DNA from: Anaerolineae bacterium
Lineage (GTDB): Bacteria; Chloroflexota; Anaerolineae; B4-G1; DUEL01
Length of the DNA: 35,309 nt
Direction of reading: 5' to 3'
Assembly (NCBI GenBank): GCA_041082215.1
Contig: JBDOIF010000066.1
Coordinates: 1-35,309 of the forward strand
Part shown: positions 9,001 to 35,309 of the stretch, piece by piece
How positions within the stretch are numbered: position 1 is the stretch's first letter
Layout of the letters: each line of letters opens with the position of its first letter
The notes under the pieces: generated by a model
Seen by the model: only the letters and a program-made list of their open reading frames with translations
What the model was told of the DNA's origin: nothing
Databases searched by the model: none
Translations under genes and position numbers: made by a program

Positions 9001-9129
9001 CCCGGAGGGAGAGGTCCAGGCTGCATGGACTTCTCCCTGGGGGCCGGCCAGCAGTCCCGAAAGCGTCAATACGCCAACGAGCGCCAATCCCAATGCGAGA
9101 ACAAACCTCCAGACCCCACGCTCAACCAT
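1..9129 (-). CDS. Giant secreted/surface protein, partial (>3043 aa, no stop in window): right-handed parallel beta-helix modules alternating with Ig-like repeats
   Basis: ATG at 9129 after GGAGGGCGGAG; N-terminus MVERGVWRFVLALGLALVGVLTLSGLLAG is signal-like. The same frame reads ...RPVLITGPATVTLAGFHIL at position 1. Repeated GGG(I/L/V)Y and N-x-(I/V)YxN beta-helix motifs; modules end in xFHLxxxSPCI...D(I/M/V)GxxE; nine HxxTNTGxxTDTF-type repeats. Absent from the ORF track because it lacks a stop; the long plus-strand ORFs here are all its antisense frame. Confidence 0.9.
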   Translation of the reverse strand, partial: MVERGVWRFVLALGLALVGVLTLSGLLAGPQGEVHAAWTSPSGGPAAPPPAALYGLDQERQGFPPAAPLFQASAVITVCNSGCPYTSVQAAVSAVAPGGIVKVAQGVYTDTDSSGHVVHITGNLTLQGGYTLTNWSYPDPARYPTLLDGEGSAQVVYIEEGATAVVEGFHIRNGYVITDGAGVYIAGGTSILRRNQVYSNTARNSGGGVYIAGGGPTLENNLIYNNVADRKRGGGLYIAGGTPLLQHSLLYGNQASSEGGGIYIASGAPVISATIVVSNSAAAGGGLYVYGGTPLLDYNDVWGNLNQDYVGVSPGSHSISDDPLLVDPPGADFHLQAGSPCIDQVPITQTVSLDYEGRARPFGERSDIGAHEFYTGTCFARVNAGRVYTAVQAAVDAAGNGGIVRVAGYCAGVEVRAGISQTVYISKGLTLQGGYTLTNWSDPDPGQNPTTLDAQGLGRVIYVNSPNPVTVEGFRLSNGDTGDSFGIADNGGGLYVAGGRHTIRYNDIYSNVASGNGGGVYIASAAEVYGNRVYSNTARGNDFASGGGGGLYIGNASALVHDNDIYANGSTGGDDGGGGICIRADATVWNNTVYSNQSTYGGGIFVYDAAATVRWNAVYRNVANGEGGGLYVRLLSTGAVVEYNTIYSNTSQGGTRGGGGIYSEGNTSHGPAIRYNTISSNTASLDGGGIYAREYSLIQGNVLFNNSATNGGGIAVTTAVDGNPGPAIERNRVYGNSAGTAGGGIWTGSNDQATIQNNLIYGNTANGGIYLGYTALVQNNTVYGNTGNGIRRVLGSPTVRNNIVVSNTGYGLYGSVSCTYCDVWGNGSGNYGGGASAGTGSFSANPLFMSPGVDFHLQAGSPCRDTADPDNYSLLDHDGYARPFGTRADMGAYEFYTGACFAQIAGASRVYTSVQEAVDEAGTAGLVMVAGYCAGVEEREGMSQTVYLSGALTLRGGYTLTNWISPTALTTLDPQGAGRGVYITGTDAITVEGFLIRGGSGISGGGLYIAAPLSPTVQNLIFYSNTASYGGGLATVGGNPRIFNATFVSNTGTVAGGGVYLSGGSPIISNSIFVGNSTGGIWASGATPSLAYNDVWQNQGGGYVGTSPGATDFSTDPLFQDPAGEDFHLRADSPCIHTGDPNTGVTQDVEGDPRPLGRGYDVGADESASYPDVLFTPDRQASGTPGLAVVHIHFLTNTGSVTSSFDLTHSLTVSGTGEWSVAYPPVLTLAPGAGTPVPVTVSVPAGAISGTYALVVLTATSGINPTIYDVVTNTTVVNWNPGVGVTPTYAEHLNPGSVVTYGHTVRNTGNATDTFNVAWTSSRGWTEAVTPTLFANLGPQGTASLWVRVVIPATAPGGLTETTVITLSSPTSGVRTVITDTFESNHTVGDRYVSTLGNDTLNNCRVYTTPCRTIAHAVEQAASGDVVKVAAGVYYEHDLTLNKNVVLRGGYLTTNWERSDPQANPTIIDAQGLGRVLYIFGQPTVEGFTLRGGSTAGSGGGIYIFSLGSPIIRSNIITGNSASIYGGGIYNEQGNAIIDRNVLAFNVADRGGGFASASGQPGFWNNAVYGNMAGSDGGGVYAAGGSPRIWHDTVYDNSAGRGGGVFLAGGSAVVSNSVVVSNTALITGGGIYSQTASARVDYNDVWSNAGGDYAGLDGGPHSISADPLFVNALAANFHLQEGSPCIDRGDRTAVAQDVDGQPRTMGDAPDMGLDEFVRPGVALEPDRAGTGLPGEVLFYTHTVTNTGTYTDTFHLSLSGWGSIVGPSQFALGAGFTRTVQVRVSIPTGALSGTVGTTVLTATSTIHPAVFDTVVDSTTVGLLGGLLLEPDRAREVASAPPETVAVVYTHFLTNTANYTDTFDLTGTSSQGLEVSVAPTVATLGSGVSTTVHVTVTVPAIPTDTVLIDTTLVTATSRTVITLSDTVTDTTCINRRPGVALTPDRTATVPPGQAVTYSHTLTNTGNTTDTFTFTFSSSQRWNVQVPTPQTLGPGLSTTVWVTIPVPAGTLSNTVDTTVVTATSAISPAIAARVVDTTTVRQAPGLLFRRATDCLGLCVTSPPSTTLGYLFVLTNTGNYTDTFDLTGASSQGWGLMLTPPETTLAPAQGTGIIAWLDVPSTTERLTDVTVVTATSRADNSVRDDASYTTRVNWNVSVALEPDRTGNLIVGNTIRYTHTVTNTGEETNTIDLDWSNLDGWKVKVNPSSISNLGPGDTATVEVEVTVPSGITDATNQTVITATTVFYCRALDFAVDTTRVTRPAVTLFPDYNLSGMPGTVVTYTHVLSNSGAVTDTYTLTYSSSLGWSASVTPTTVYSLPPGSATLVTARVTVPMVMSNTSDLLVITATSQYTDTIFDTARDRTTAAYLPGAVLAPDRSGQADAGGFTSYTHTLTNTGNYTDTFYLSTWSEFGNALVEPAMVELGPGEAYSPVVVTVLLPHHAAAGEIEKTEAIVSFAGQQAVALDFTQVNPITGTRYVAPGGTNENNNCTIPIDYGPCATLQHAVDQASSGDEVRVAQGVYTDVHALNGITQVVRVDKSLTLRGGYTPEDWNAPDPVAHPTVLDAGGQGRVVYLIGTEITVTLEGFHLRHGYAGGMDNAGAGLYVAAGVAPTIRWNWIYSNTAAGNESKGGGVYYGGTGSPLIEGNTIYSNTAEDGGGLYLAGGSPQVWNNVLYGNTATKQGGGLYAGGSPQVWNSTLYSNTAEDGGGLYLLGGAPVVSNTIVANNYATATGGGLYQDGGSPALAYNDVWGNVPNNYFGASAGPGSISADPRFTDPTAPDLHLTRASPCINAGDPATPLSQDRDGAPRPQLGGYDIGAYEYGLIGTVHAPAAADPGGLITCTVAVTNVGPFQWTIPVTDPLHPYLDFVSLTSTVGSGEYVTAAHTVSWTGPVAGNSTAYITFTARITDWVAAGTAIANQAWVDHGATDAVTTSVNALPGVRYVAVTGEDTDNNCLMAWRPCRTVQWGADQALAGDEVRVATGTYTDTLGAGQVVSLSTSISLIGGYTSTTWTCNPEAYPTHLDGEGTARPVLITGPATVTLAGFHIL

Positions 9130-17091: not shown

Positions 17092-17466
17092 AAAAAGACT
17101 GACTGTTATCAGGAAGGACCGTTCCCTGAAGGGGAGAGGAGAGGGAGGCTGGTGGACCCCGCGACCGCGGACCGAATGGCCTCCATTTTCAGGGTGCTGG
17201 CCGACCCGACGCGGGTCCGTATCCTTTCCGCCCTGGCGCGATCGGAACTGTGCGTGGGGGAGCTGGCCGCCTGCCTGGAGATGACCGTCTCAGCCATCTC
17301 CCATCAGCTCCGCCTCCTGCGCAGGATGCGGCTGGTGCGCCCCCGCCGCGAGGGAAAGCATGTATACTACGCGCTGGACGATGACCACGTCGAGAAGCTG
17401 TTCCATCAGGCGATGGAGCACGTGGAGGAACAGGTAGAGGATGGAGCAGGGCAAACAGAGCTATGA
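17089..17466 (+). CDS. ArsR/SmtB-family metal-sensing repressor (SmtB/CzrA/ZiaR-like)
   Basis: FRVLADPTRVRIL, ELCVGELA, SAISHQLRLLR, and alpha5 metal site DDDHVEKLFHQAMEHVEE. Confidence 0.93.
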   Translation: MKKTDCYQEGPFPEGERRGRLVDPATADRMASIFRVLADPTRVRILSALARSELCVGELAACLEMTVSAISHQLRLLRRMRLVRPRREGKHVYYALDDDHVEKLFHQAMEHVEEQVEDGAGQTEL

Positions 17467-19663
17467 GGATGCGCGGGGCGAGTTGACTTTCCGCGTGGAC
17501 GGGATGGACTGCGCCGATTGCGCGCTCCATCTGGAACGGGCCGTGGCCCGCCTGGAGGGCGTGGACCGGGTCGAGGTCTCCTTTGCCACGGGACGGATGC
17601 GGCTGGCCGCCCGGGACGCGGCGTCTGTGGTGCCCCGGGTGCGGAGGCTGGCCCGCAGGATGGGATATGAGGCCGTGCCGGATCGCGGGACACAGGCACC
17701 CCCGGCCGGCCTCTGGGCTTTCCTCCGTCGCCATCGGTCCATCTGGCCGTCGGCGGGGGCGGGGCTGCTGTTGCTGACCGCCTTCGCGCTCCGCCTGCTC
17801 GGCGGGCCGGCCCTGGCGGCGGACGGGCTTCTGGTGGCGGCAACGCTGGTCGCCGGCTTTCCCCTGGCCCGCGCGGCGTGGGCCACCCTGCGCTCCGCCC
17901 GCACGGTGGATATGAACGGCCTGATGACCATCGCCGCCGTGGGGGCGCTGGCCATCGGCGAATACGCTGAGGCGGCCGTCGCCACATTTCTGTTCACGGT
18001 GGGGGAGGCGCTGGAGACCTATACGGCCGACCGAGCGCGGGGGGCGGTCCGGGCGCTGATGGACCTCCGGCCCGCCGAGGCGACGCGGCTGACGGAGGCG
18101 GGGGAGGAACGGGTCCCGGTAGAGGCCCTGGCGGTGGGGGACCGGCTCCTGATCCGCCCCGGCGAGCGGGTGCCGGCCGACGGGCGGGTGCTGGAGGGAC
18201 ACTCGGCGCTGAACCAGGCGACCATCACCGGCGAGGGGATGCCGGTGGACAAGGGGCCGGGAGATGAGGTCTTCGCCGGGACGGTGAACGGGGCAGGGGC
18301 GCTGGTCGTCGGGGTGACGCGCGTTGCCGAAGACTCCACCCTGGCCCGCATTGTCCGGCTGGTGACGGAGGCGCAGGAGCAGCGCGCGCCCAGCCAGCGG
18401 TTCGTGGACCGCTTTGCACGCATCTATACCCCGGCGGTGGTGGCTGTGGCGGCGCTGGTGGCCGCGGTCCCTCCGCTGGTGGGGTGGGGGGCGCCGCTCG
18501 ACTGGGTGTACCGGGCGTTGACGCTCCTGGTCATCGCCTGCCCCTGTGCACTGGTCATCTCGACTCCGGTAGCGATGGTGAGCGGCCTGACCGCCGCTGC
18601 GCGGGCGGGGGTGCTGATCAAGGGAGGGGTCCATCTGGAGCAACTGGCCCGGGTTCGCGCCGTCGCCTTCGACAAGACGGGCACCCTCACCCGGGGCGAG
18701 CCGCGACTGGTGGACGGTCAGTGTGCGGACCATGATCCCCGGCTGGCGCCCCGTGAATGCGTGGCCTGCCTGGATATGCTGGCCAAGGCGGCGGCTGTGG
18801 AGCGGCGCTCAGAGCACCCGCTGGCGCAGGCCGTGGTGGAGGCGGCGGATGCGCTGGGGGTAGGCGAGCGGTATCGGCCCGCCGAGGCGGTCGAAGCGGC
18901 TGCGGGCCAGGGCGTGCGGGGCCGGGTGGAAGGGCACGAGGTGGCGGTGGGGAGCCACGCCTTCGTCCACGGAGCGGGCGAGCCAGGGGAGTTCTGCCGT
19001 CTGGTGGAAGCAGCGGCCGCGAACGGGCAGACCGCCGTGGTTGTGGCCGATCTCTGTTGTGGCCAGCGGGCATACGGCCTGATCGCCGACACCCTGCGGG
19101 AGGAGGCCGCCTCTGTCCTGGCCGAGCTGAAGCGGCTGGGAGTGCGACAGACGGTGATGCTCACTGGCGACAACCCGGCCACGGCTGAGGCCGTCGCGCG
19201 GGCGGTGGGAGTGGACGAGGTGCGGGCGGGGTTGCTGCCCCAGGAGAAGGTAGCGGCTGTGGGGGAGCTGCTCGCAGCCTACGGGACAGTAGCGATGGTC
19301 GGGGATGGGGTGAACGACGCCCCGGCGCTGGCCCGGGCCTCTGTCGGCATCGCCATGGGGGCGGCCGGCTCCGACGTGGCGCTGGAGACGGCCGACGTGG
19401 CGCTGATGGGGGATGACCTGAGAGGGCTGCCGGCGGCGGTGCGGATCAGCCGCCGGGCGCTGCGGGCCGTCCGCCAGAACGTCGCCCTGGCCCTGGCGAC
19501 CAAGGGCCTCTTCCTGGCCCTGGCTGTGGCAGGGCTGGCTACCCTCTGGATGGCCGTCTTCGCCGACGTGGGGGTGTCGCTCCTGGTCATCCTCAACGGA
19601 ATGCGGGTGATGGGGCGGGAAAGAGGACTCTCCCGGCAGCATGGTGTAAGTCCCAGCTCTTAA
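17441..19663 (+). CDS. cadA: Heavy-metal-translocating P1B-2 ATPase (Zn/Cd/Pb; ZntA/CadA-like)
   Basis: N-terminal HMA GMDCADC, TGE, CPC, DKTGT, SEHP, MLTGDN, GDGVNDAPALA; the Lys in ALATKG and Asp in AVFADVG fit P1B-2. Confidence 0.93.
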   Translation: MEQGKQSYEDARGELTFRVDGMDCADCALHLERAVARLEGVDRVEVSFATGRMRLAARDAASVVPRVRRLARRMGYEAVPDRGTQAPPAGLWAFLRRHRSIWPSAGAGLLLLTAFALRLLGGPALAADGLLVAATLVAGFPLARAAWATLRSARTVDMNGLMTIAAVGALAIGEYAEAAVATFLFTVGEALETYTADRARGAVRALMDLRPAEATRLTEAGEERVPVEALAVGDRLLIRPGERVPADGRVLEGHSALNQATITGEGMPVDKGPGDEVFAGTVNGAGALVVGVTRVAEDSTLARIVRLVTEAQEQRAPSQRFVDRFARIYTPAVVAVAALVAAVPPLVGWGAPLDWVYRALTLLVIACPCALVISTPVAMVSGLTAAARAGVLIKGGVHLEQLARVRAVAFDKTGTLTRGEPRLVDGQCADHDPRLAPRECVACLDMLAKAAAVERRSEHPLAQAVVEAADALGVGERYRPAEAVEAAAGQGVRGRVEGHEVAVGSHAFVHGAGEPGEFCRLVEAAAANGQTAVVVADLCCGQRAYGLIADTLREEAASVLAELKRLGVRQTVMLTGDNPATAEAVARAVGVDEVRAGLLPQEKVAAVGELLAAYGTVAMVGDGVNDAPALARASVGIAMGAAGSDVALETADVALMGDDLRGLPAAVRISRRALRAVRQNVALALATKGLFLALAVAGLATLWMAVFADVGVSLLVILNGMRVMGRERGLSRQHGVSPSS

Positions 19664-19718: not shown

Positions 19719-19857
19719 TTCACGAGAACGCTGAGGACGCTGAGAATGCTTCGTGCCCCTGTGCCCTCCGTGCCTTTCTGGTTCTTCGCCTGAGCGGTAA
19801 AGAATGGGGGCCGAAGGGACGCCGGATACCTTCTGTTGGAACACCCTTGGAGGGGGA

Positions 19858-21324
19858 ATGCTGACAAAAAACGACGTCCTGGTTCTCGGGCTGCTGCTCG
19901 ATCGGCCGATGCACGGCTATGAGATCGGTCAGCTCATCAAGAGCGAGGGCATTGACCAGTGGATGGACGTCAGCGTGCCCGCGGTCTATTATTCCCTCAA
20001 CAAATTGCATCGTCTGGGCTATCTCTCCGCTGCCCGTTCCCGCCTGGGCGGAGTCGAGAAAAGCGTCTATCACCTCACCGAGATGGGGCGTCAGGCCTTC
20101 CTTGAGAGCATGGAGGGGATCCTTGGCTCTGAGGAGCCGGTCCGTTTCGACATTGATCTGGGGATTTTCCTCCTGAGCCGTTTCCCTCAGGACCGGGCCG
20201 TTGATCTTTTGGGGAAGCGGCTGTCGTTTCTCCGCCAGCGCTCCGCCGAGCTGGAAAAGCGCATTCAGAAAGCGCAGAGCAGCGGCGAGTTGCTCCGGGC
20301 TGCCATTCTCGAGCACAGCGCTGCATGTACCCGTATGGAGTCGGAGTGGCTGGATGGGATCATCCAGCGGCTGCGGGGTGAGGGGCGGGAAGTGGAGGGG
20401 GAAGCCGGACTGGTACGGCTTGTCGGCGACCTGCGCGACTTCCACCTCCCCGGCCTGATCAGGTTGATCGTTACAGGCAGGCTGAGCGGCACTCTTGTCG
20501 TCACCGATGGCATCTTCACCCGCACCCTTACTTTCCAGGAGGGCCGTCCCGTCTGCGCTACTTCCCGGCGACCGGAGGGGGAGGTGCGCGATCCGGGGCA
20601 GATTCTGAACGACATCTACGACCTTTTTCGCTGGCAGGAGGGAGCGTTTACCTTCGACCAGCAGGTGGCGGCCCAGGAAGGCTGCCTGGTACTGCAGTTA
20701 AGCCCGGAGAGCCTCATCCTGAACGGGGTCCGGTGGGTGGACAATTGGGCCGTCATCCAGCGCGTCATTCCGTCGGCAGATGTGGTCTTCGAACGGCGGG
20801 AGGGTGTGCAGTGCCCCACCGACCTGGAGCTGACCGAGGAGGAATGCCAGGTGCTGGGGGCGGTTGACGGGGTACGGGACGTATCCGACGTGGCCCGGAA
20901 ATGTGGCCTCACCGAGTTCGAGACCAGCAAGGTCCTCTACGGCCTCCACGCCGTCGGCCTGGTCCAGCCGGGCGATCTGGAAAAAATCCGCCTGCGCCGC
21001 CTCTTCCGGGAGTTTGCCGAACTGATGTGCCAGTCTACCAAACCCTACCGGGCTGGCCCCGACGACTTTTCCTGCGAGGAAGCGATCAACCAGCGGTGTG
21101 CCGACCTCCCGGTCCTGTTTGTCCGCAGCCGGGTTGAGGATCGGACCGATCCCAGCTTGCGGACGGAGGAGCTGGTTGAGATTTACCGCCGGTTTCTCCA
21201 AACACAGATCGCCGTGGTCCGGGAACGGTTCGGCAAAGAGGTCGCCGGGAAGCTCGTCCAGCAGGTGCTGGCCCAGATCAATCCCAGCCTTCGATCCGTT
21301 CTGGAACGTTACAGCCTCGCTTGA
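19858..21324 (+). CDS. PadR-family regulator fused to a DUF4388 (PatA_N-like) domain and C-terminal helical domains (488 aa)
   Basis: ATG at 19858 after GGAGGGGG. LGLLLDRPMHGYEI...SVPAVYYSLNKL...YHLTEMG is a PadR wHTH; GDLRDFHLPGLIRLI...SGTLVV...FQEGRPVCA...WQEGAFTF resembles DUF4388. Confidence 0.8.
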   Translation: MLTKNDVLVLGLLLDRPMHGYEIGQLIKSEGIDQWMDVSVPAVYYSLNKLHRLGYLSAARSRLGGVEKSVYHLTEMGRQAFLESMEGILGSEEPVRFDIDLGIFLLSRFPQDRAVDLLGKRLSFLRQRSAELEKRIQKAQSSGELLRAAILEHSAACTRMESEWLDGIIQRLRGEGREVEGEAGLVRLVGDLRDFHLPGLIRLIVTGRLSGTLVVTDGIFTRTLTFQEGRPVCATSRRPEGEVRDPGQILNDIYDLFRWQEGAFTFDQQVAAQEGCLVLQLSPESLILNGVRWVDNWAVIQRVIPSADVVFERREGVQCPTDLELTEEECQVLGAVDGVRDVSDVARKCGLTEFETSKVLYGLHAVGLVQPGDLEKIRLRRLFREFAELMCQSTKPYRAGPDDFSCEEAINQRCADLPVLFVRSRVEDRTDPSLRTEELVEIYRRFLQTQIAVVRERFGKEVAGKLVQQVLAQINPSLRSVLERYSLA

Positions 21325-21535: not shown

Positions 21536-22192
21536 ATGGATAGATCCACGCTCTCCCGCCGCCGATTTCTGGGGCTGGCGGCTGCTGGCGCCGCGGCTGC
21601 TTTGGGCCTGCCGTTGTTGAGGGACATCCCCTCCGTTGCGGAGGGGCGCCCTGGTGCCCGCTATGCCCTGGTGATTGACACCACCAGGTGCACGGGCTGC
21701 GGGGCGTGTATCGAGGCCTGCCGCCTGCGTAACCATCTCCCCGAAGGGGTCAGTTACATCCGCCGCATCGTCAAGGGGAACAGCCGCAACCCCTGGTTCC
21801 TGATGATCCAGTGCCAGCACTGTGCCAACCCCCCCTGCGCCACCGTCTGCCCCACCAACGCCACCTACCGGCGGGAGGACGGGGTGGTGCTCATTGACGA
21901 GCGGCTCTGCGTGGGCTGCAGGTACTGCATGCAGGCCTGCCCCTATCAGGCCCGCGTCTTTGACGAGGAGCGGGGGGTGGCTGATAAGTGCTGGCTCTGC
22001 CTCCCCTGGGTCCTGGGCGGGGGGCTTCCGGCCTGCGTGGAGGCCTGCATCCCCGGCGCCCGCTTCTTCGGCCGCGCCGACGACCCCAGTAGCGGGGTCG
22101 CCCAACTGATCGCCTCGGGCCGGGCCAAACCTCTCCATCCCGAATTTGGCACCGAGCCATCTATCCTGTCCTACATCATTGAAGAAGAGTGA
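21536..22192 (+). CDS. Tat-exported 4Fe-4S ferredoxin-type subunit (NrfC/PsrB/TtrB-like)
   Basis: SRRRFL twin-arginine signal; CTGCGACIEAC, CQHCANPPCATVCP, CVGCRYCMQACP, KCWLC...PACVEAC. Confidence 0.92.
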   Translation: MDRSTLSRRRFLGLAAAGAAAALGLPLLRDIPSVAEGRPGARYALVIDTTRCTGCGACIEACRLRNHLPEGVSYIRRIVKGNSRNPWFLMIQCQHCANPPCATVCPTNATYRREDGVVLIDERLCVGCRYCMQACPYQARVFDEERGVADKCWLCLPWVLGGGLPACVEACIPGARFFGRADDPSSGVAQLIASGRAKPLHPEFGTEPSILSYIIEEE

Positions 22193-22200
22193 GGTGGTCC

Positions 22201-23172
22201 ATGCAGACAGCCTGGGGCTGGCTTCCGGCCATTTACCTCTTCCTGGGCGGCATGGGCGCAGGCGCGCTGATGGTCGCCGCCACCTTTGAGTTCTACGGCA
22301 AGCGCTACCAGTACGACTTCTGCCCCACCGCCCTGGTGGGTGCCACCGTCTCCGGCCCCCTGGTCATCCTGGGCACGATCCTGCTCATCTTTGACCTGGG
22401 GGCTGGCCTGCGGGAGCCCTGGCGCATCCTCTATATGTTCACCCACTTTTCCTCGGTGATGACCTGGGGCGTCTGGCTCCTCACCCTCTTCATCCCGGTC
22501 TCCATGGTCTACGGCTTCCTGGAATACCTGGACTCCTTCCCGGCGGCGCGGGAGTGGCTGAGGGCCCGACAGTGGCTGGGCTGGACGAAGTTCCTCTGGA
22601 TCCTCCCCCTCCGCCGGACCAAGCGGGTCTTCGCCGGAATCGGCGTGGTGCTGGCCGTCGGTGTTGCCATTTATACGGGCATCCTGCTCAGCGCCGTGGG
22701 GCCGGCCATCCCCTTCTGGTCCACCCGCGTCCTGCCCTTCATCCCCATCCCGATGATGCCGGTCCTCTTCCTGGTCTCCGCCCTCTCCACCGGCCTGGGG
22801 CTGACGGTGGACCTGGCGGCGACGCTGGCGGTCGGCCCGATGGAGCAGCGGGTAAAGAGTTTGCCCTGGATTCATATGGCCTTCATCGGCGTGGAGACGC
22901 TCCTTCTGGGGATGCTCCTCATCACCGCGCTGGTGGACGGCGGCTCGGCGGCTCAATCGGCCCGGGAGATTATCGCGGGCAGCCATGCTGTCGTCTTCTG
23001 GGTGCTCATCGTGATCCCCGGCTTCATCTTCCCCTTCGTCGTCCACGCCTACGCAGCCGGGCTGGGGCGTCACTCTCTGGTCTCCGGCGTGGGTTCCGGG
23101 ATCGGCATCGTCGTCGCCGGATTGTTCCTGCGCTACCTGATCCTGGTCAGCGGCATCCCCGCCGCCTTGTAA
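22201..23172 (+). CDS. nrfD: NrfD/PsrC-family quinol-interacting membrane anchor
   Basis: Probable ATG at 22201 after GAGGTGG; WGWLPAIYLFLGGMGAG, LIFDLG, SSVMTWG, YTGILLS, PFW, LFLVSALSTG, LFLRY. Confidence 0.9.
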   Translation: MQTAWGWLPAIYLFLGGMGAGALMVAATFEFYGKRYQYDFCPTALVGATVSGPLVILGTILLIFDLGAGLREPWRILYMFTHFSSVMTWGVWLLTLFIPVSMVYGFLEYLDSFPAAREWLRARQWLGWTKFLWILPLRRTKRVFAGIGVVLAVGVAIYTGILLSAVGPAIPFWSTRVLPFIPIPMMPVLFLVSALSTGLGLTVDLAATLAVGPMEQRVKSLPWIHMAFIGVETLLLGMLLITALVDGGSAAQSAREIIAGSHAVVFWVLIVIPGFIFPFVVHAYAAGLGRHSLVSGVGSGIGIVVAGLFLRYLILVSGIPAAL

Positions 23173-23182
23173 GGAGACGCCA

Positions 23183-24064
23183 ATGTTACCTGCCCACTGG
23201 CCCAAATGGACGGTCATCCTCATCGGCCTGGCGCTGGCAGTTTTCACCATCCTGCTGGCGCTGGTGCTGGAGCCGGCGGCTCAGGCGCTGATGCCAAAAC
23301 CTACCCCCATTTCCACCCCGCCGCTCCTTCCTTACGCCGCACCCCAATCCCGCGAATGTATCCTCTGCCACACGGACGAGGCGGCTCTGGGCCAGACCGT
23401 ATCCGATGTTGAGGAGCTGGGGCGGCTCTGGATTGACCCGGCGGACGTCATCTCGGTCCACGGTCGGTTGGGCTGCGTCACCTGCCATCGGGGGAGCGGC
23501 GGCACGACCGACCTGGCTGCTGCCCATCAGGGGTTGGTGAAGGACCCCACGCTGCATTTTGAGGAGGAATGCCTCCTTTGTCACCGGAACCTGCCGGACG
23601 AGATCCCCGACGACCGGCTGCGCACGCCCCACTCCTCGGTGGTCCACGGCCAGGCGCAGGGAGTGACCTGCAGCGATTGCCACGGTGGGGTGGGGCACGG
23701 TTTTGACCCGGTTTCCGGCAAAGTGACCTGCTCCATGCACGTCTGCCTGGAGTGTCACCAGGCCCGCGGTCTGAGCGCCGAGCTACAGGGTTGCAACGCC
23801 TGCCACATCGGCCCGCATGATGTCTCGGCGGCCCTTTCCTGCAGCGACTGCCACACCTCCACCGAGCGCTGGAACGAGACCCATCTGGCGGTCCATCCGG
23901 TGGAACTGGTGGGATGGCATGCGCAGATAGATTGCTTTGACTGCCACGACTGGCCGAACTTCAGCGGCCTTCGCTACGTCTGTAGCGACTGCCACCAGCG
24001 TCCCCACGACTTCGGGAGCGATAATTGCGAGGAGTGCCATAGCCCGGAGGGGTGGGGCAAGTAG
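23183..24064 (+). CDS. Membrane-anchored decaheme c-type cytochrome (293 aa)
   Basis: N-terminal hydrophobic helix, Pro-rich linker and ten CxxCH motifs; RBS AAGGAG. Confidence 0.92.
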   Translation: MLPAHWPKWTVILIGLALAVFTILLALVLEPAAQALMPKPTPISTPPLLPYAAPQSRECILCHTDEAALGQTVSDVEELGRLWIDPADVISVHGRLGCVTCHRGSGGTTDLAAAHQGLVKDPTLHFEEECLLCHRNLPDEIPDDRLRTPHSSVVHGQAQGVTCSDCHGGVGHGFDPVSGKVTCSMHVCLECHQARGLSAELQGCNACHIGPHDVSAALSCSDCHTSTERWNETHLAVHPVELVGWHAQIDCFDCHDWPNFSGLRYVCSDCHQRPHDFGSDNCEECHSPEGWGK

Positions 24065-24125
24065 AGCAGGATTGCAAAATCAAGAAGGCGAAAGCCGATA
24101 AAATCTCAACAGGAGGAACTGAAGA

Positions 24126-25190
24126 ATGAAGCGTTCGCTCTATCCCATACTGGTCGCAATGACCATCGTCGCTACGCTGCTGGCGGGCTGTGCACAGCCC
24201 ACGCCGGCCCCCACGGCAACGCCGATGCCGCCGACGGCGACCCCTGTCCCGCCAACGGCAACGCCGGTGCCGCCCACGCCGACACCAGAACCCACTCCGG
24301 TGCCCGCTTCCGTCGTCATCCTGGATGCCGCAGCGTCCTACTTCACCGAGGGGATGAAGCTGATCGGCGCCGATGCGGTCTACGAGAACCTCAACGACGG
24401 CGATGCGTCCAACGACCCGATCATCATTGATATCCGCAGGCCGGAGGACTACGCCCTGGGGCACATCACGGGCGCGGTCAACATCGGCGCGGGCGCGCTC
24501 TTCGCCCCGGAGACGCTGGCGAAGCTGGACCCCGACCGTCAGATCGTCGTCTACTGCTACACCGGGCAGGCTTCAGGGCAGGTGGTGGCGGCGCTGAACA
24601 TGCTGGGCTACGACGCCTACAGCCTCAGGTTCGGCATGCCCTCCTGGGCGCTGGTGGAGGGAGTCTCCGCTGGCCCCTGGAAGGATAGCATGAGCCAGGG
24701 TTACCCTGTGGATATGGAGCCTGCCGATCTGGCCGGCAACTACCCCGCGCCGGAGCCTCCGGGGACGGACATAGCCTCTGCCGCGCTGGCCTACTTCACC
24801 GAGGGGATGAAGCTGATCGGCGCCGATGCGGTCTACGAGAACCTCAACGACGGCGACGCGTCCAACGACCCGATCATCATTGATATCCGCAAGCCGGAGG
24901 ACTATGCCCTGGGCCACATCACGGGTGCGGTCCACATCGGCGTGGGTGGCATCTTCAATCCGGAGACGCTGGCGAAGCTGGACCCCGACCGTCAGATCGT
25001 CGTCTACTGCTACACCGGGCAGGCTTCAGGGCAGGTGGTGGCGGCGCTGAACATGCTGGGCTACGATGCCTACAGCCTCAGGTTCGGCATGCCCTCCTGG
25101 GCGCTGGTGGAGGGAGTCTCCACACCTCCGTGGAACGACGAGATGACTCTGGGCTATCCGGTGGATATGGAGCCTCACGAGTTGCCGTAA
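24126..25190 (+). CDS. Lipoprotein with two tandem rhodanese (sulfurtransferase) domains
   Basis: Lipobox LLAGC, PTATP linker, two copies of IIDIR.PEDYALGHITGAV and the active-site loop VVYCYTGQ. Confidence 0.92.
   Translation: MKRSLYPILVAMTIVATLLAGCAQPTPAPTATPMPPTATPVPPTATPVPPTPTPEPTPVPASVVILDAAASYFTEGMKLIGADAVYENLNDGDASNDPIIIDIRRPEDYALGHITGAVNIGAGALFAPETLAKLDPDRQIVVYCYTGQASGQVVAALNMLGYDAYSLRFGMPSWALVEGVSAGPWKDSMSQGYPVDMEPADLAGNYPAPEPPGTDIASAALAYFTEGMKLIGADAVYENLNDGDASNDPIIIDIRKPEDYALGHITGAVHIGVGGIFNPETLAKLDPDRQIVVYCYTGQASGQVVAALNMLGYDAYSLRFGMPSWALVEGVSTPPWNDEMTLGYPVDMEPHELP
24337..25121 (+). repeat. 332-bp intragenic direct repeat (24337-24668 and 24790-25121)
   Basis: Offset 453 bp; about 15 mismatches by manual count (~95% identity). 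Confidence 0.93.
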
Positions 25191-25203
25191 TCCCGGGGAG
25201 GGG

Positions 25204-25239
25204 AGAGCCTCCCGCAGGTTGACCCCTGCGGGAGGCTCT
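25204..25239. other. Perfect 15-bp intergenic stem-loop
   Basis: AGAGCCTCCCGCAGG-ttgacc-CCTGCGGGAGGCTCT; no U-tract on the plus strand. Confidence 0.8.
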
Positions 25240-25259
25240 ATCTCACCGAAGGAGGTCCG

Positions 25260-26648
25260 ATGCGGACAAAGGGGATCTGGCTGTTTCTCAGCGGCCTGCT
25301 GGGGCTGGTTCTGGCTGGCTGTCTGGCCCGGCCCGAAATCACCCCCCTGCCGCCCAGCCCGATGCTCCCGGCCGTCCCCACCCGCGCAGCGACCCCGATA
25401 CCCTCTACGGAAACCCCCGCCCCACAGGCCGATAGCAGTACCTGTATCGCCTGCCACACCGACGAGGAGACGCTGAAGGCGCTGGCCGTGGAGCCGGAGG
25501 AGGCCGAACACCTCTCCGAGGGGGAGGGCTGAGGGGGGTCGTTGCCTCCGGTGGAGGCTTGGGAGAAGGTCTTCTTAGATGACCAGGCGCTGGGCAGGGT
25601 GCATGCCGAACTGGGCTGCATCGCCTGCCATGGCGGCGTCGGGGGTGTCACGGATATGGCCGCCGCTCACGAGGGGGTGGTGCGCGACCCCGACCCGGCC
25701 CAGACCTGCGCGTCCTGCCACCAGGAGACGGTGCAGACCTACGGCGACAGCCTCCATGTGACGCTGGCTGGCTACTACACGGTGCTTCAGATGCGGAGCG
25801 ACGAGGAGCACTGGCCCCAGTTGATGGTCGCCTTCGATAACCACTGTGATGACTGCCATGCTTCCTGTGGTCAGTGCCACGTAAGCCGGCCCACGATCAA
25901 CGAGGGGGGCCTGCTGGCGCAGCACGAGTTCAAACAACTTCCCCCGATGAACCTGACCTGCACCGGATGCCACGGCAGCCGCGTCAACGACGAGTATAAG
26001 GGCAAGAACCAGACCGCCGACGGCGAGAAGGTCCCTGCCGACGTCCACTTCAACCCCGGCGGCATGGCCTGCTTTGCCTGCCACAGCGGGGACCAGATGC
26101 ACGGTGCGCTGGGAGTGGAGGATCACCGGTACGACGGCCCGCCCACTCCGTCCTGCACCCAGGAGGGCTGTCACGAGGAGATCGGGCCAGGGGACGGGAT
26201 CGCTTACCACACTGAGGAGCACATCGCCAGGGTGCAGTGCCAGGTCTGCCACGCGGCCCCCTACAAGCACTGTTACAACTGCCACGTCCAGCTCTCTGAT
26301 GAGGGCGTCCCGTTCTTCCGGACAGAACCCTCGGAGATCTTCCTCAGGATCGGGCGCAACCCCATCCAGAGCCCGGACCGGCCGTGGGAGTATGTGCTGG
26401 TGCGGCATGTGCCGGTGGCGCGGGATACCTTCGCCTACTACGGCGAGAACCTGCTAGCCAACTTCGATGCGCGGGAGACCTGGACCTACGCCACGCCCCA
26501 CACCATCCAGCGGCGCACCCCGCAGACGGCGTCCTGTGATTCCTGCCACGGCAACGCGGAGCTGTTCCTGACGGAAGCGTTCGTCCGCCAGCGGACGCCG
26601 GACGAGGTGGAGGCGAACCGCCGGGTTATCGTAGAGGAGGTTCCCTAG
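25260..26648 (+). CDS. Putative selenocysteine-containing multiheme c-type cytochrome lipoprotein (462 aa; Sec at codon 91, TGA 25530-25532)
   Basis: ORFs 25260-25532 and 25542-26648 are in frame: SEGEG-TGA-GGSLPPVEAWEK. The lipobox LAGC lies only in the first part. Ten CxxCH plus one CX4CH in total. SECIS-like hairpin downstream; homology to the neighbouring decaheme spans the TGA. Confidence 0.82.
25533..25558 (+). promoter_or_regulatory. Candidate bacterial SECIS element of the cytochrome
   Basis: GCCTCC-GGT-GGAGGC hairpin (25544-25558); the G-initiated loop starts 18 nt after the UGA. Confidence 0.68.
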
Positions 26649-26669: not shown

Positions 26670-26707
26670 CAAAGCGGCGCGTCCTCTTGCAGAGACACGC
26701 CGCTTTG
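26670..26707. terminator. Probable bidirectional intrinsic terminator
   Basis: CAAAGCGGCG...CGCCGCTTTG inverted repeat between convergent genes, with short A/T flanks. Confidence 0.68.
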
Positions 26708-31458: not shown

Positions 31459-32388
31459 TTGTCCTCCTATCCCGTACCTGAGGGTACTCTTCCTCACGGA
31501 CTTCCTTCGGTGCCCGCTGGAGCGGGGGTGCTGGCGGATGCACTGCGTCGCCGGATCGCCGGGCGGCCCGAACTGAAAGGGATGGTTACCCCTTATCTGG
31601 CCTTCCTGGAAGCACAGGCTGTGGTGGAATCCGCTCTTGTTCCGTCCGCGTCGGACGGAACCGAGGTGCGCGCCCGCCTGGATCGGGGTATCCCCGCGCT
31701 GGCCCCCGAGGACTTCCGGGCCGACCCGGAGGCCCTGCTGCGGCTGTGGGAGGAGGTCTGCGCGATTGCATCCCGTCACTTCCCCGACCTGGCCCCCGCG
31801 CTGGAATCCATCCGCCGCTGGCCCGACGGCCGGGAGGACGGCCTCCTCTCCGCCACCATCTACTACCTGCGGGGCGAGGCCGGTCTCCTGGCACAGGAGG
31901 CGGAGTTGGACGAATCCCTCTTCCAGTTCGTGCTCAACAACACCCTCCACCCCTTCCTGCGCCGCTATGCATCGGCCCTGGCCCCGCTGGTCAACCTGGA
32001 GACCTGGTATCGTCCCTATTGCCCGGTCTGCGGTGGGGAGCCGGACTTTGCCGCGCTGACCAAACCCCACGGCGCCCGTCGCCTCCTCTGCTCCCGCTGC
32101 GACTTTGAGTGGCCCTACCGGCGGACCTCCTGTCCCTTCTGCGGCAACGACAACCCCGACCAGTATCTGTACGTTCCCTCGGAGGACGGCATCTACCGCC
32201 TCTATCTCTGCGACCGTTGCCGCCGCTACCTGAAGGTGATAGACCTGCGGGAACTGGTGGAGGAGCCGCCGCTTCCGGTGGAGCGGATCCTCACCCTGCC
32301 GATGGACCTGGCAGCCCGGCGGGAGGGGTACGGAGTACGCAATACGCAACACATGACAGGAGGTGCCTATCGGAAAAACCGCCCCTGA
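31459..32388 (+). CDS. fdhE: Formate dehydrogenase accessory protein FdhE
   Basis: CPVCG, CSRCDFEW.YRR..CPFCG and CDRCRRYLKVID motifs; adjacent to the FDH alpha gene. The TTG start is uncertain. Confidence 0.9.
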   Translation: MSSYPVPEGTLPHGLPSVPAGAGVLADALRRRIAGRPELKGMVTPYLAFLEAQAVVESALVPSASDGTEVRARLDRGIPALAPEDFRADPEALLRLWEEVCAIASRHFPDLAPALESIRRWPDGREDGLLSATIYYLRGEAGLLAQEAELDESLFQFVLNNTLHPFLRRYASALAPLVNLETWYRPYCPVCGGEPDFAALTKPHGARRLLCSRCDFEWPYRRTSCPFCGNDNPDQYLYVPSEDGIYRLYLCDRCRRYLKVIDLRELVEEPPLPVERILTLPMDLAARREGYGVRNTQHMTGGAYRKNRP

Positions 32389-32438: not shown

Positions 32439-35309
32439 ATGAAAATCAGTCGTAGAGAATTCCTCAAGCTGACGGCTGCGGCCAGCGGGAGCCTGCTCTT
32501 CCCGACCTCCCCGACCCTGGCGACCACCGAAGGGCCGGTCTTCCCGCTCCACAAGAAGGTCAAGGAGGCGGTCACCATCTGCCCCTACTGCTCCTGCGGC
32601 TGCGGCCTGATCATCGCTACCGGGCCGGACGGCCACATCGTCAACTCCGAGGGCGACCCCGATAACATCACCAACCGGGGCGCTCTGGACCCCAAGTCCA
32701 TCGCCGTCCGGCAGCTCTCCCAGAGCCCCCTCCGCCTCAAGAAGCCCCTCTACCGGGCTCCCGGCGCCAGCGAGTGGCAGGAGGTGGAGTGGGACTGGGC
32801 CATCACGGAAGTCGCCAAACGGATCAAGGCCACCCGGGACGCCACCTTTGAGCGCACCAATGCCGACGGCGTCACCGTCAACCGCACCATGGGCCTGGCC
32901 TTCCTGGGCGGCGCGGCCAACAACTCCGAGGAGTGCTACCTGGCGACCAAACTGGCCCGCGCCCTGGGTATCGTCTACCTGGAACATCAGGCCCGTATAT
33001 GACACTCCGCGACAGTGGCCGGTCTGGCCCCAACATACGGTCGCGGAGCAATGACCAACCACTGGGTGGACCTCAAGAACGCCGACTACATCCTCGTCAT
33101 CGGCTCCAACTGCGCGGAGAACCACCCGGCCTCGATGACCTGGATCCACAAGGCGATGAACGAGCGCGAGGCCAAACTGATCGTCGTGGACCCCCGCTTC
33201 ACCCGCACCGCCTCCCAGGCCCACCTCTACGCCCCGATCCGCCCGGGCACCGACATCGCCTTCTTCGGCGGGATGATCAAGTATATCCTGGATAATGAAC
33301 TCTACCACAAGGATTATGTGGTCTACTACACCAACGCTGCCAACCTGATCAACCCCGACTACAAAGGCCCGGACGAACTGGACGGCCTCTTCTCCGGCTA
33401 CGACCCGGAGAAACGGCGCTACGACCGCTCCACCTGGTCCTACCAGACCGGTGAGGACGGGAAGCCCCTGCGGGACGAGACGCTCCAGGACCCCCACTGC
33501 GTCTTCCAGATTATGAAGCGCCACTACGCCCGCTACGACCTGGATACCGTCTCCGGCGTGACGGGCATCCCCAAGGACCTGCTGGAGAAAATCTACAGGA
33601 CCTACGCCGAATCGGGCCAGGTGGGCAAGGCCGGCACCATCCTCTACGCGATGGGTCAGACGCAGCACACCGTGGGCTCCCAGAACGTGCGCGTCCTGGC
33701 CATCGTCCAGTTGCTCCTGGGCAACATCGGCATCCCCGGCGGCGGCGTCAACGCCCTGCGCGGCGAGTCCAACGTCCAGGGCTCCACGGATGTCGGCCTC
33801 CTGGCCCACATCCTGCCCGGCTACCTGCCCATCCCCACGACGGCGGACGTGGACCTCAAGACCTACATTGAGAACAAGACCAAGCCGGGCGGCGCCTGGT
33901 CCGGCGGCTACTGGGCCAACGGCCCCAAGTTCCTTATCAGCCTGCTCCGGGCCTGGTGGGGCCCTTACGCCGTCCAGCGCACCGACTTCGCCTACCAGTA
34001 CCTGCCCAAGGTGGATAGCGCCGCCAACCATTACTGGATCGCCCTCTTTGAGGCGATGTATGCCGGGAAGATCAAGGGCCTCTGGATTATGGGCATGAAC
34101 CCGGCCGTCGGCGGCCCCAACGCCCGCTTTGAGCGGGAGGCGCTGAAGCGGCTGGAGTGGATGGTGGTCCAGGAAATCTTTGATACCGAGACCACCTCCT
34201 TCTGGCGCGCGCCGGGCGAGGACCCCTCCCAGATTCAGACCGAGGTCTTTGTCCTCCCCGCCGCCGACGCGATGGAGAAGGCCGGCAGCATCGTCACCAG
34301 CGGGCGGCTCATCCAGTGGCGGGAGAAAGTCGCTGAGGCCCCGGGCGAGGCGAAGCCCGACCACCAGATCATCAACCTCATCGCGCTCAAACTCAAGGAA
34401 CTCTACGCCGCCGACCCCGGCCCCTTCCCGCAGCCCATCCTGCACCTGGTCTGGGACTACGGGCAGGAACTGGACATTGAGAAGGTGGCGCGGGAGATGA
34501 ACGGCTACGCGGTCAAGGACGTGAAGGACGCCCAGGGCAACGTCCTGGCGAAGAAGGACGCCACGCTGACCACCTTCGCCCACCTGCAGGCCGACGGCTC
34601 CACCGCCTGCGGCGTCTGGATTTACACCGGCTACTTCTCGCTCCAGCCGGACGGGTTCGGCAACATGCTCCCGGCGGCGAAGCGGCGCAACTCCGTCTAC
34701 GACCCCGGCGGCTACGGCAACTACCCGTACTGGGGCTGGGCCTGGCCGGCCAACCGCCGCATCGTCTACAACCGCTGCTCCGCCGACCCCGACGGCAAGC
34801 CCTGGTCGGAGGACCGTAAGTACATCTGGTGGGACGAGGCCCAGAAGAAGTGGGTCGGCTACGACGTACCCGACTTCGTCGTCACCCGCGCGCCCACCGA
34901 CCCCGGCGGTCGCGACCCCTTCATCATGCGCACCGACGGCAAGGGCGGCCTCTTCGCCGCGATGAACGAAGGTCCTCTGCCCGAGCACTATGAGCCGGTG
35001 GAGTCGCCGGTGAAGAACGTCTTCTCCAGCCAGCAGATCAACCCGGTGGTCAAGGTCTGGAAGACGGATGAGGGGAAGGACATCGGCGACAACTGGGGCA
35101 CGCCCGATAAATTCCCCATCGTCGCCACCACCTACCGGCTGGTGGAGCACTGGCAGGCGGGCGGTATGTCCCGCTGGCTGGACTGGCTGGTGGAGGCGCA
35201 GCCGGAGATGTTCGTGGAGATGAGCCAGGAACTGGCCGCCGAGAAGGGCATCAAGAGCGGGGACCGGGTGAAGGTCCGCTCCGCCCGCGGGGAGATTGAG
35301 GCCATCGCC
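32439..35309 (+). CDS. fdnG: Formate dehydrogenase-N-type alpha subunit, selenocysteine-containing (Sec188, TGA 33000-33002), partial at 3' end
   Basis: Tat signal SRREFLK; CPYCSCGC; EHQARI-TGA-HSATVAGLAPTYGRGAMTNHW; AENHP, VVDPRFTRTA, IRPGTDIAF, ALRGESNVQG, PEHYEP, TTYRLVEHW. The frame stays open to the window end. Confidence 0.96.
33003..33048 (+). promoter_or_regulatory. SECIS element of fdnG
   Basis: Apical GGCC-GGTCT-GGCC (33017-33029, loop starts 19 nt after the UGA) on a lower stem CTCCGCGAC/GTCGCGGAG. Confidence 0.8.

Follow-up and report, generated by a model that had tools for sequence, protein, structure and literature searches.

The stretch of DNA analysed here, called the window below, comprises 35,309 nt from an Anaerolineae bacterium of the phylum Chloroflexota (assembly GCA_041082215.1, contig JBDOIF010000066.1, positions 1 to 35,309 of the forward strand). 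Our subject is a reading frame at positions 25260-26648 that contains one in-frame TGA codon: an open reading frame of 90 amino acids (25260-25532) ends at the TGA at 25530-25532, and onward the same frame is open up to a TAG at 26646-26648. Read through the TGA, 25260-26648 on the forward strand is one gene, whose product P0001 has 462 residues. A sequence-only reading of this DNA had described a 90-residue lipoprotein part with a single CxxCH motif in front of the TGA and a ten-heme part without export signal behind it, and had proposed that both belong to one selenoprotein. The sequence is as described there, and the comparative data make it very probable that 25260-26648 is one gene, in which the UGA at 25530 is recoded to selenocysteine (Sec) by means of a SelB-type Sec insertion sequence (SECIS) hairpin starting 11 nt further on. 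The features of the locus are as follows.

25250-25255, forward strand: Shine-Dalgarno sequence AGGAGG, 4 nt 5′ of the ATG at 25260, as read from the sequence.
25260-26648, forward strand: very probable selenoprotein gene encoding a lipoprotein multiheme cytochrome c (P0001), based on the matches of 26 relatives in 24 other genomes.
25260-25322, forward strand: predicted signal peptide with lipobox L-A-G-C and predicted lipidated Cys21, from the sequence and aligned in relatives too.
25443-25457, forward strand: heme motif 1, C62-I-A-C-H66, 5′ of the Sec codon and invariant in the 20-sequence alignment A1.
25530-25532, forward strand: TGA, read as U91, motif G-U-[G/A]-G, with invariant flanking Gly codons in 55 of 55 contexts.
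25533-25543, forward strand: spacer of 11 nt between the UGA and the hairpin, from the ungapped alignment of 55 contexts.
25544-25558, forward strand: hairpin GCCTCC-GGT-GGAGGC, 6 bp with the loop G-N-U, identified by covariation and encoding P-P-V-E-A.
25617-26549, forward strand: ten more heme-binding motifs, from C120 to H430, based on invariant Cys and His columns (alignments A1 and A2) and on Pfam.
26671-26706, no strand assigned: inverted repeat AAAGCGGCG...CGCCGCTTT, located where two genes converge; as read from the sequence, it may act as a terminator.

P0001 has the characteristics of an exported multiheme cytochrome c lipoprotein: CxxCH motifs, cytochrome domains and a signal peptide with a lipobox, the latter assigned by the lipobox consensus. 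The Pfam domains Cytochrome_C7, Cytochrom_c3_2 and Cytochrome_C554 (PF14522, PF14537, PF13435) score above their gathering thresholds, all of them generic cytochrome domains. The motifs behind the TGA are nine of the CxxCH type and C299-x4-C304-H305, which is a CxxCH motif in many relatives. All 11 heme motifs are invariant in alignment A1, in which the 22 invariant Cys residues all lie within these motifs and no invariant Cys was found outside them. Among the His residues outside the motifs, nine are invariant and one is nearly so, and K103 and M269 are nearly invariant as well (A1 and A2). With 11 hemes and only 9-10 such His residues, one or two hemes would be left without a conserved His as distal ligand. 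The Sec residue lies in the context S-E-G-E-G-U-G-G-S. Maturation of c-type cytochromes needs export; the part behind the TGA has no signal peptide of its own, yet contains ten heme motifs, which favours a single read-through protein. The predicted product is a lipid-anchored, extracytoplasmic 11-heme cytochrome c, in which a glycine-rich loop connecting the regions of hemes 1 and 2 carries the single Sec.

The TGA is conserved among relatives. A six-frame search of 40 related genomes yielded 16 matches spanning the site in 15 genomes (53-85% identity), and another ten, in nine genomes, came from 400 sampled genomes of the phylum (45-52% identity); every one of these matches contains exactly one TGA. 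By a script check, the TGA occupies one shared column in 26 of 26 distinct loci including that of the window itself, with the motif G-U-[G/A]-G. The protein sequence is conserved on both sides of the TGA and the frame does not change in any of the 26 site-spanning matches (alignment A1). A search of metagenomes with a Trp-form query gave 54 further loci, of which 43 cover the site, the other 11 being fragments that stop short of it. The codon at the site is TGA in 37 of these 43, TGG in three and ATA in two, and in the remaining locus, L057, the pairwise alignment puts a Trp two residues away from it. The set used for hairpin and codon statistics consists of 55 distinct TGA contexts of 48 nt. 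In all 55, the codon 5′ of the TGA encodes Gly and the next two codons read G[G/C]N and GGN. The two ATA (Ile) loci, L098 and L099, differ from TGA by a two-base change. In L098, the stem described below is still paired at 5/6 positions, as in its TGA sibling L097, so that the ATA form looks recent. For the target itself, the TGA is unchanged in contigs from two further sequencing runs of another study (X2 and X3), which cover 25200-25712; the runs containing target DNA are labelled as hot-springs metagenome.

A strong inverted repeat, GAGCCTCCCGCAGG ... CCTGCGGGAGGCTC, is located at 25205-25238, in the 69-nt gap between the stop codon of the upstream rhodanese gene and the start of the cytochrome gene. 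Two contigs of run X2 differ from the window at this repeat, one by a 2-nt insertion at 25219, the other by diverging there. The repeat may serve in attenuation or in RNA stability, or it may mark a junction that varies between strains.

The 55 contexts align without gaps, so the 11-nt spacing between the TGA and the hairpin never varies. The first and third loop bases are G and T throughout (GTT in 43 contexts, GGT in 11, GCT in one), and standard pairs make up 96.1% of the 330 cells given by 55 contexts and a 6-bp stem. Changes on both sides were found in 6/6 stem pairs (25 cells); these stem counts stem from related sequences and are not independent events, with several distinct compensatory solutions among them. 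None of 500 column shuffles matched any of five measures, and sliding the 3′ arm by 1-3 columns lowered pairing to 32-52%. The stem variants include GGCTCC/GGAGCC, ACCTCC/GGAGGT, GCCTCA/TGAGGC and GCCGC/GCGGC. Coupled residue swaps, such as L-P-P-L-E-A versus V-A-P-L-E-P, preserve the pairing, pointing to a constraint at the RNA rather than the protein level. Two loci, L106 and L107, carry a strand-swapped stem, GGAGGA-GGT-TCCTTC, still 11 nt away from the TGA and encoding V-E-E-V-P-S in place of L-P-P-V-E-A. In forms without TGA the stem has decayed: three of six pairs are left in the TGT form L110, two of six in the TGC form L111 and one of six in the TGG form L080. This 55-sequence set supersedes a first covariation test with 15 sequences, in which there was one compensatory pair and 261 of 500 shuffles equalled the pair count. 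Two flanking helices drawn by RNAalifold contain many broken pairs and are not claimed. The proposed selenoprotein is thus borne out by a TGA kept in 26/26 genomic and 37/43 metagenomic loci, by a covarying hairpin, and by the decay of this hairpin in the TGT, TGC and TGG forms.

We identified 36 proteins that span the Sec column without a stop. Cys occupies the column in ten of them (e.g. G-E-G-C-G-G) and is shifted by one column in another four; at the DNA level, the Cys codons are TGT in L110 and TGC in L111. The other residues are Trp (eight), Tyr (three), Met and Leu (two each), and His, Val, Ala, Gly, Ser, Glu and Arg (one each). The Cys forms came from an exhaustive search of cluster representatives; a search with region 45-135 of the target, with Cys in place of U, returned only seven proteins and no Cys form. 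An origin of the Trp forms as translation artefacts of genetic code 4 was rejected, as the DNA of L080-L082 reads TGG. The sequence-only reading had expected homologs with TGA or Cys at this column and conservation on both sides, and this is what the 16/16 and 10/10 matches and the GEG-C-GG forms show. The distribution suggests a classical Sec/Cys family with side branches in which the chalcogen was replaced, mostly by a one-step change from TGA to TGG.

That this organism decodes UGA as Sec had been concluded from an fdnG gene in the same window, and the remainder of the genome agrees: it encodes selB (350 bits, cut-off 242), selA (565 bits), selD (330 bits, with a TGA of its own) and a tRNA-SeC(tca), and three of its fdh-like genes have an in-frame TGA. 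The gene within the window is:

32442-35309, forward strand: fdnG-type formate dehydrogenase alpha subunit with its Sec-TGA at 33000-33002, running off the window end.

It scores 1134 bits against TIGR01553 (cut-off 814) and contains a single internal TGA. Its SECIS (33000-33030), of the fdnG/fdhF type, resembles the element of the cytochrome gene in being a hairpin within the coding sequence right after the UGA with a G-G-U loop, and differs from it in the sequence and length of the stem. The positions given for the target hairpin proved correct, including a CCGGT located at +16 to +20 in the target and at +17 to +21 past the fdnG TGA, one base apart. Elsewhere in the genome, in-frame TGA codons are found in selD and two further fdh-like genes (G000:C139:20928-21848, G000:C37:4148-7228 and G000:C83:45941-46684, all on the reverse strand), indicating a selenoproteome of several members. 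Directly 5′ of fdnG, an open reading frame at 31459-32388 (forward strand) shows a weak match to the FdhE central domain (26.9 bits, just below the cut-off of 27). Among genomes carrying the TGA-containing cytochrome gene, selB is present in 14 of 15 related genomes and in nine of nine from the phylum sample. In a sister family with selB in none of eight genomes, no ortholog of the cytochrome was found.

Upstream of the cytochrome gene lies a run of four genes in the same orientation.

21536-22192, forward strand: 4Fe-4S subunit of the DsrO/TtrB/NrfC type (NCBIfam DsrO 181.6 bits at a cut-off of 200, TtrB 174.7).
22189-23172, forward strand: NrfD/PsrC-type integral membrane, quinol-interacting subunit (Pfam NrfD, 122 bits).
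23183-24064, forward strand: multiheme cytochrome c of 293 amino acids, with an N-terminus paralogous to the target and no Sec loop.
24126-25190, forward strand: tandem-rhodanese lipoprotein (Pfam Rhodanese, two stretches, 130 bits).

The 293-residue cytochrome shares 40% identity with residues 13-158 of P0001. A rhodanese gene adjoins the target homolog in 11 of 12 related loci scanned, upstream in closer kin and downstream in another family. For the Cys forms this holds true for one of two loci (in an assembly labelled Bacteroidetes), the other having none within 2 kb, so that adjacency was found in 12 of the 14 loci tested. In one of these loci (L037:3-2336, forward strand; product P0275), at least three rhodanese repeats are fused in frame to the seleno-cytochrome, with the frame continuing through a retained TGA. 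No signal peptide separates the two parts of this fusion, whose locus begins at a contig end that leaves its full N-terminus out of view. The two halves of the rhodanese gene in the window, 24326-24625 and 24779-25078, form a 300-nt direct repeat with 94% identity at a spacing of 453 nt, which suggests that a tandem duplication or a gene conversion took place recently. Further upstream, the window encodes a heavy-metal P-type ATPase (17441-19663, forward strand; TIGR01525, 598 bits) and, directly upstream of the gene run, a PadR-DUF4388 regulator (19804-21324, forward strand), which may control the cluster. At the other end of the window, on the reverse strand at 1-9129, a frame of more than 3043 amino acids runs off the window and contains NosD, FixG_C-type immunoglobulin (Ig), HYDIN/VesB-like Ig and DUF5123 domains; its product is probably a giant surface protein.

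The sequence-only reading had left open whether the protein belongs to the ExtKL family. Against the ExtKL/MccSep model NF040886 (cut-off 250 bits), the genome gave no match at E ≤ 0.001 and P0001 none at E ≤ 10, which places it in a separate family. Neither did P0001 match TIGR04315 (octaheme tetrathionate reductase, cut-off 375 bits) at E ≤ 10 in six-frame and hmmscan searches, or NF041027 (GSU2204 family CXXCH selenoprotein) at E ≤ 10, with HMMER filters that may drop very weak matches. Its sole NCBIfam match is ExtM at 16 bits. By these NCBIfam models, the predicted family is distinct from the known heme selenoproteins ExtKL/MccSep, GSU2204 and TIGR04315. PMC13188914 describes three families of heme-related selenoproteins, and the target fits none of them; it also states that TIGR04315 includes selenoproteins annotated as such in GenBank. 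In PMC13510729, the main text does not mention Chloroflexi, and the two Chloroflexota entries of the supplement are both of the MccSep type. No description of the target family was found in full-text Creative Commons papers of PMC or in bioRxiv. With 516 clusters at 50% identity (matching at E ≤ 0.001), the family is a large one; it is found in Chloroflexota-like and other bacteria of hot springs, sediments and other metagenomes. Some members (P0035, P0041, P0065, P0068, P0079 and P0108) are longer (about 485-770 amino acids); their C-terminal parts carry additional heme domains and a membrane anchor, and all of them are called from just past the TGA.

Structural comparison gave one lead. A phmmer search of P0001 against the PDB returned nothing meaningful, and the A1 profile gave weak matches (28pb_A at 6.4e-6; NrfA at about 1e-3 across 44-53 residues). 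An AlphaFold2 model from 76 sequences has a mean predicted local distance difference test (pLDDT) score of 67 and found no PDB match at E ≤ 0.001 with Foldseek. An exhaustive VIA-align comparison of this model aligned 239 residues (model 113-462 versus chain positions 1-432) to 1sp3, the octaheme tetrathionate reductase of Shewanella, with Z 6.7 and a root-mean-square deviation of 4.4 (next row Z 2.9), where a Z below 8 may mean only a common arrangement of the heme core. We treat this resemblance of the model as a lead, not as proof. The Shewanella enzyme, the only structural match that stands out, is a multiheme reductase of sulfur compounds, with 8 hemes versus 11 in the target. Its active heme is Lys-ligated; in the target, the Lys residue K103, invariant or nearly so, follows the Sec loop.

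Two respiratory systems share several parts with the cluster. In the Sud-Psr system of Wolinella succinogenes, a rhodanese-like transferase supplies the terminal reductase with sulfane sulfur. This reductase is linked to quinol via the 4Fe-4S protein PsrB and the NrfD-type PsrC, and its catalytic subunit PsrA is a molybdopterin enzyme. The same three accessory parts (rhodanese, 4Fe-4S and NrfD-type) are encoded at 21536-25190, whereas a molybdopterin gene is missing from the target cluster and the seleno-cytochrome takes its place. The other system is MccSep of Geobacter sulfurreducens (GSU2937-2936), a Sec-dependent multiheme polysulfide (and selenite) reductase (PMC13510729). It resembles the target in being exported as a multiheme cytochrome c with a single UGA-encoded Sec, in having a gene that annotation splits and a SECIS-like hairpin just 3′ of the UGA, and in the existence of both Sec and Cys forms; its cluster has the rhodanese-like lipoprotein ExtH together with 4Fe-4S and NrfD-type genes. 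In contrast to these likenesses, there is no sequence relationship between the two by NF040886. MccSep has five hemes and the target 11. The Sec of MccSep, residue 325, belongs to a C-terminal Ig-like domain with the motif D-G-U-P, whereas that of the target, residue 91, lies near the N-terminus in a G-U-G-G loop. MccSep forms soluble tetramers in the periplasm and is found mostly in Desulfobacterota and Nitrospirota; the target is a predicted lipoprotein. A third comparison concerns TsdA, SoxAX and DsrJ, which are cited in PMC13510729 for the His/Cys-ligated hemes of sulfur metabolism. They carry out chalcogen chemistry at a c-type heme of an exported cytochrome, as is proposed for the target, whose DsrO-like and NrfD-like partners resemble the DsrJOP arrangement; ligation of a heme by U91 is hypothetical.

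From this parts list, which is like that of the Geobacter ext cluster and of Sud-Psr, we infer a quinol-fed enzyme to which rhodanese delivers sulfane sulfur. Judging by its gene neighbours, we regard it as roughly an even call that the genes form a small respiratory module with the cytochrome as its terminal catalytic subunit, which would use Sec to reduce sulfane sulfur, polysulfide or a chalcogen related to them. In such a module, the NrfD-like and 4Fe-4S subunits would oxidise quinol, and the electrons would be passed onward via the 293-residue cytochrome and the chain of hemes. U91, as a selenolate, would attack a sulfane sulfur, either of polysulfide or of a persulfide on the adjoining or fused rhodanese; alternative substrates could be related chalcogens, for instance selenite or tetrathionate. 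The resulting Se-S adduct would then be cleaved reductively by the hemes. Gene structure, recoding element and linkage to rhodanese are established by comparison; which substrate is used, what role Sec has and whether the reaction runs as a reduction or an oxidation are our inference.

Several observations weigh against recoding at this site or against the proposed function. Folded alone, the sequence 25530-25575 of the window gives z = -1.11 with a competing hairpin as minimum-energy fold, no better than shuffles, so that the case for the hairpin rests on comparative data. RNA runs contributed two short contigs (one of them 197 nt), which cover only the downstream part and do not extend over the TGA. 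The sequence-only reading had named variable residues or frame changes at the site as evidence to the contrary: the frame never changes, but distant relatives without TGA do vary, and residues other than Sec and Cys occupy the column as well, with Trp in 8/36 and other residues in 14/36 when the four off-column Cys are counted as Cys. Together with the three TGG and two ATA codons among the metagenomic loci, this suggests that some lineages work without a chalcogen there. One carrier genome, G023 (72% complete), yielded no selB. The background of selB in the phylum is 294 of 401 genomes (73%), so that the co-occurrence of selB and the cytochrome gene is weak support and uninformative as a test of association; this tally includes the unpublished genomes G267, G078, G185 and G213, none of which has the cytochrome. 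As to function, MccSep requires the heme-ligating Cys239, and with no invariant non-heme Cys in the target family a Cys/Sec pair like that of MccSep cannot be assumed. Moreover, the pLDDT of the AlphaFold2 model is below 50 at residues 80-100, and Sec can therefore not be placed relative to the hemes.

A real selenoprotein could serve a different purpose, as a cytochrome devoted purely to electron transfer (e.g. in extracellular metal reduction), in which Sec is an axial ligand of a heme or tunes redox properties. The nine invariant and one nearly invariant His residues for 11 hemes would fit, leaving one or two hemes in need of another ligand, as would residues able to ligate heme (His, Met and Tyr) at the column in 6/36 relatives and the longer forms, whose C-terminal parts add heme domains and a membrane anchor. 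However, Trp, Leu, Val, Ala and Gly occupy the column too, the nearly invariant Met269 and Lys103 could be the missing ligands, and the linkage and fusion to rhodanese point to sulfur chemistry. We consider a pure electron-transfer role unlikely. The two ideas could also be combined within the sulfur-reductase proposal: U91, or Cys in the Cys forms, might be the distal axial ligand of one heme c, which would make it a natural selenolate-ligated heme c. U91 would then swing off the iron and take sulfane sulfur from the tethered or fused rhodanese, one residue doing the job of both the Cys ligand and the separate Sec of MccSep. The 9-10 distal His residues for 11 hemes, the lack of a conserved non-heme Cys and the occurrence of His, Met, Tyr and Cys at the column leave room for this arrangement, which we nevertheless rate as distinctly unlikely. 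If true, it would represent an independent, convergent heme-selenium polysulfide chemistry in monoderm Chloroflexota.

Recoding to Sec itself has three competitors. In the first, the UGA would be read through in a programmed manner by near-cognate tRNA-Trp, stimulated by the hairpin and without Sec. TGG at the column in 8/36 relatives without TGA and in three metagenomic loci agrees with this, and the loss of the hairpin in TGG forms fits equally well as under Sec. Yet Cys forms exist in the same G-C-G-G context, spacing and G/U loop of the hairpin match the fdnG element of the genome itself, selB is present in 23/24 carrier genomes with no ortholog found in the sister family lacking selB (0/8), and there would be no point in keeping a stable TGA down to 45% protein identity if a TGG codon led to the same product. 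Read-through by tRNA-Trp is thus very improbable. In the second, the UGA would be a true stop followed by a second gene that restarts at TTG 25542, which is in frame four codons past the TGA, or at GTG 25551. Codon +4 is indeed ATG, GTG or TTG in 46 of the 55 contexts and codon +7 in 45 of them, a G-rich stretch precedes the candidate starts, and public gene calls begin there. But the restarted product would have ten heme c motifs and no signal peptide, two of the 55 contexts have no start codon from +1 to +13, and in nine contexts codon +4 is CTG, CTA, TTA, GCG or GTT. The Gly/Ala-Gly codons between the TGA and these starts are kept in 55/55 contexts; the frame is unbroken in 26/26 matches, the Cys, Trp and Ile forms are continuous, and the L037 fusion continues through its TGA. 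A pair of genes at this site is hardly probable. Finally, a pseudogene or an error of sequencing or assembly, conceivable in an assembly of 174 contigs, is a negligible explanation given the TGA in 26 matches elsewhere, 37 metagenomic loci and two further runs, with both halves conserved.

A seleno-cytochrome encoded through the UGA, the reading we prefer, also accounts for the public annotation, in which standard pipelines miscall the gene, as had been anticipated. Among the best 120 public protein matches, 119 cover no more than about 80% of the query and the call restarts past the TGA; those restarted proteins that were listed begin with L-P-P-L-E-A-W or M-E-A-W. Likewise, 32 of the 150 best cluster representatives start, within their first five residues, at query positions 95-101. 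The names given to the best 120 public matches are either none or something other than selenoprotein. One source labels many of the C-terminal fragments as ‘thiosulfate/3-mercaptopyruvate sulfurtransferase’ though they are without a rhodanese domain, a label probably transferred from fused forms such as L037.

The late start call conceals the export signal together with the first heme, and both selenoproteins and functional cytochromes are thereby undercounted in surveys of the sulfur cycle and of extracellular electron transfer. MccSep is the long-sought sulfur reductase of Geobacter, and the importance of selenoproteins among multiheme cytochromes has only just been shown (PMC13510729). The family described here is a new one within this known kind of heme selenoproteins, a second family that is unrelated to MccSep and has the same ingredients: hemes, one Sec, rhodanese and an NrfCD-type module. 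Its Sec, Cys and Trp forms provide a natural mutational series, and its fusion to rhodanese offers a hypothesis for how sulfane sulfur may be handed over to a heme enzyme.

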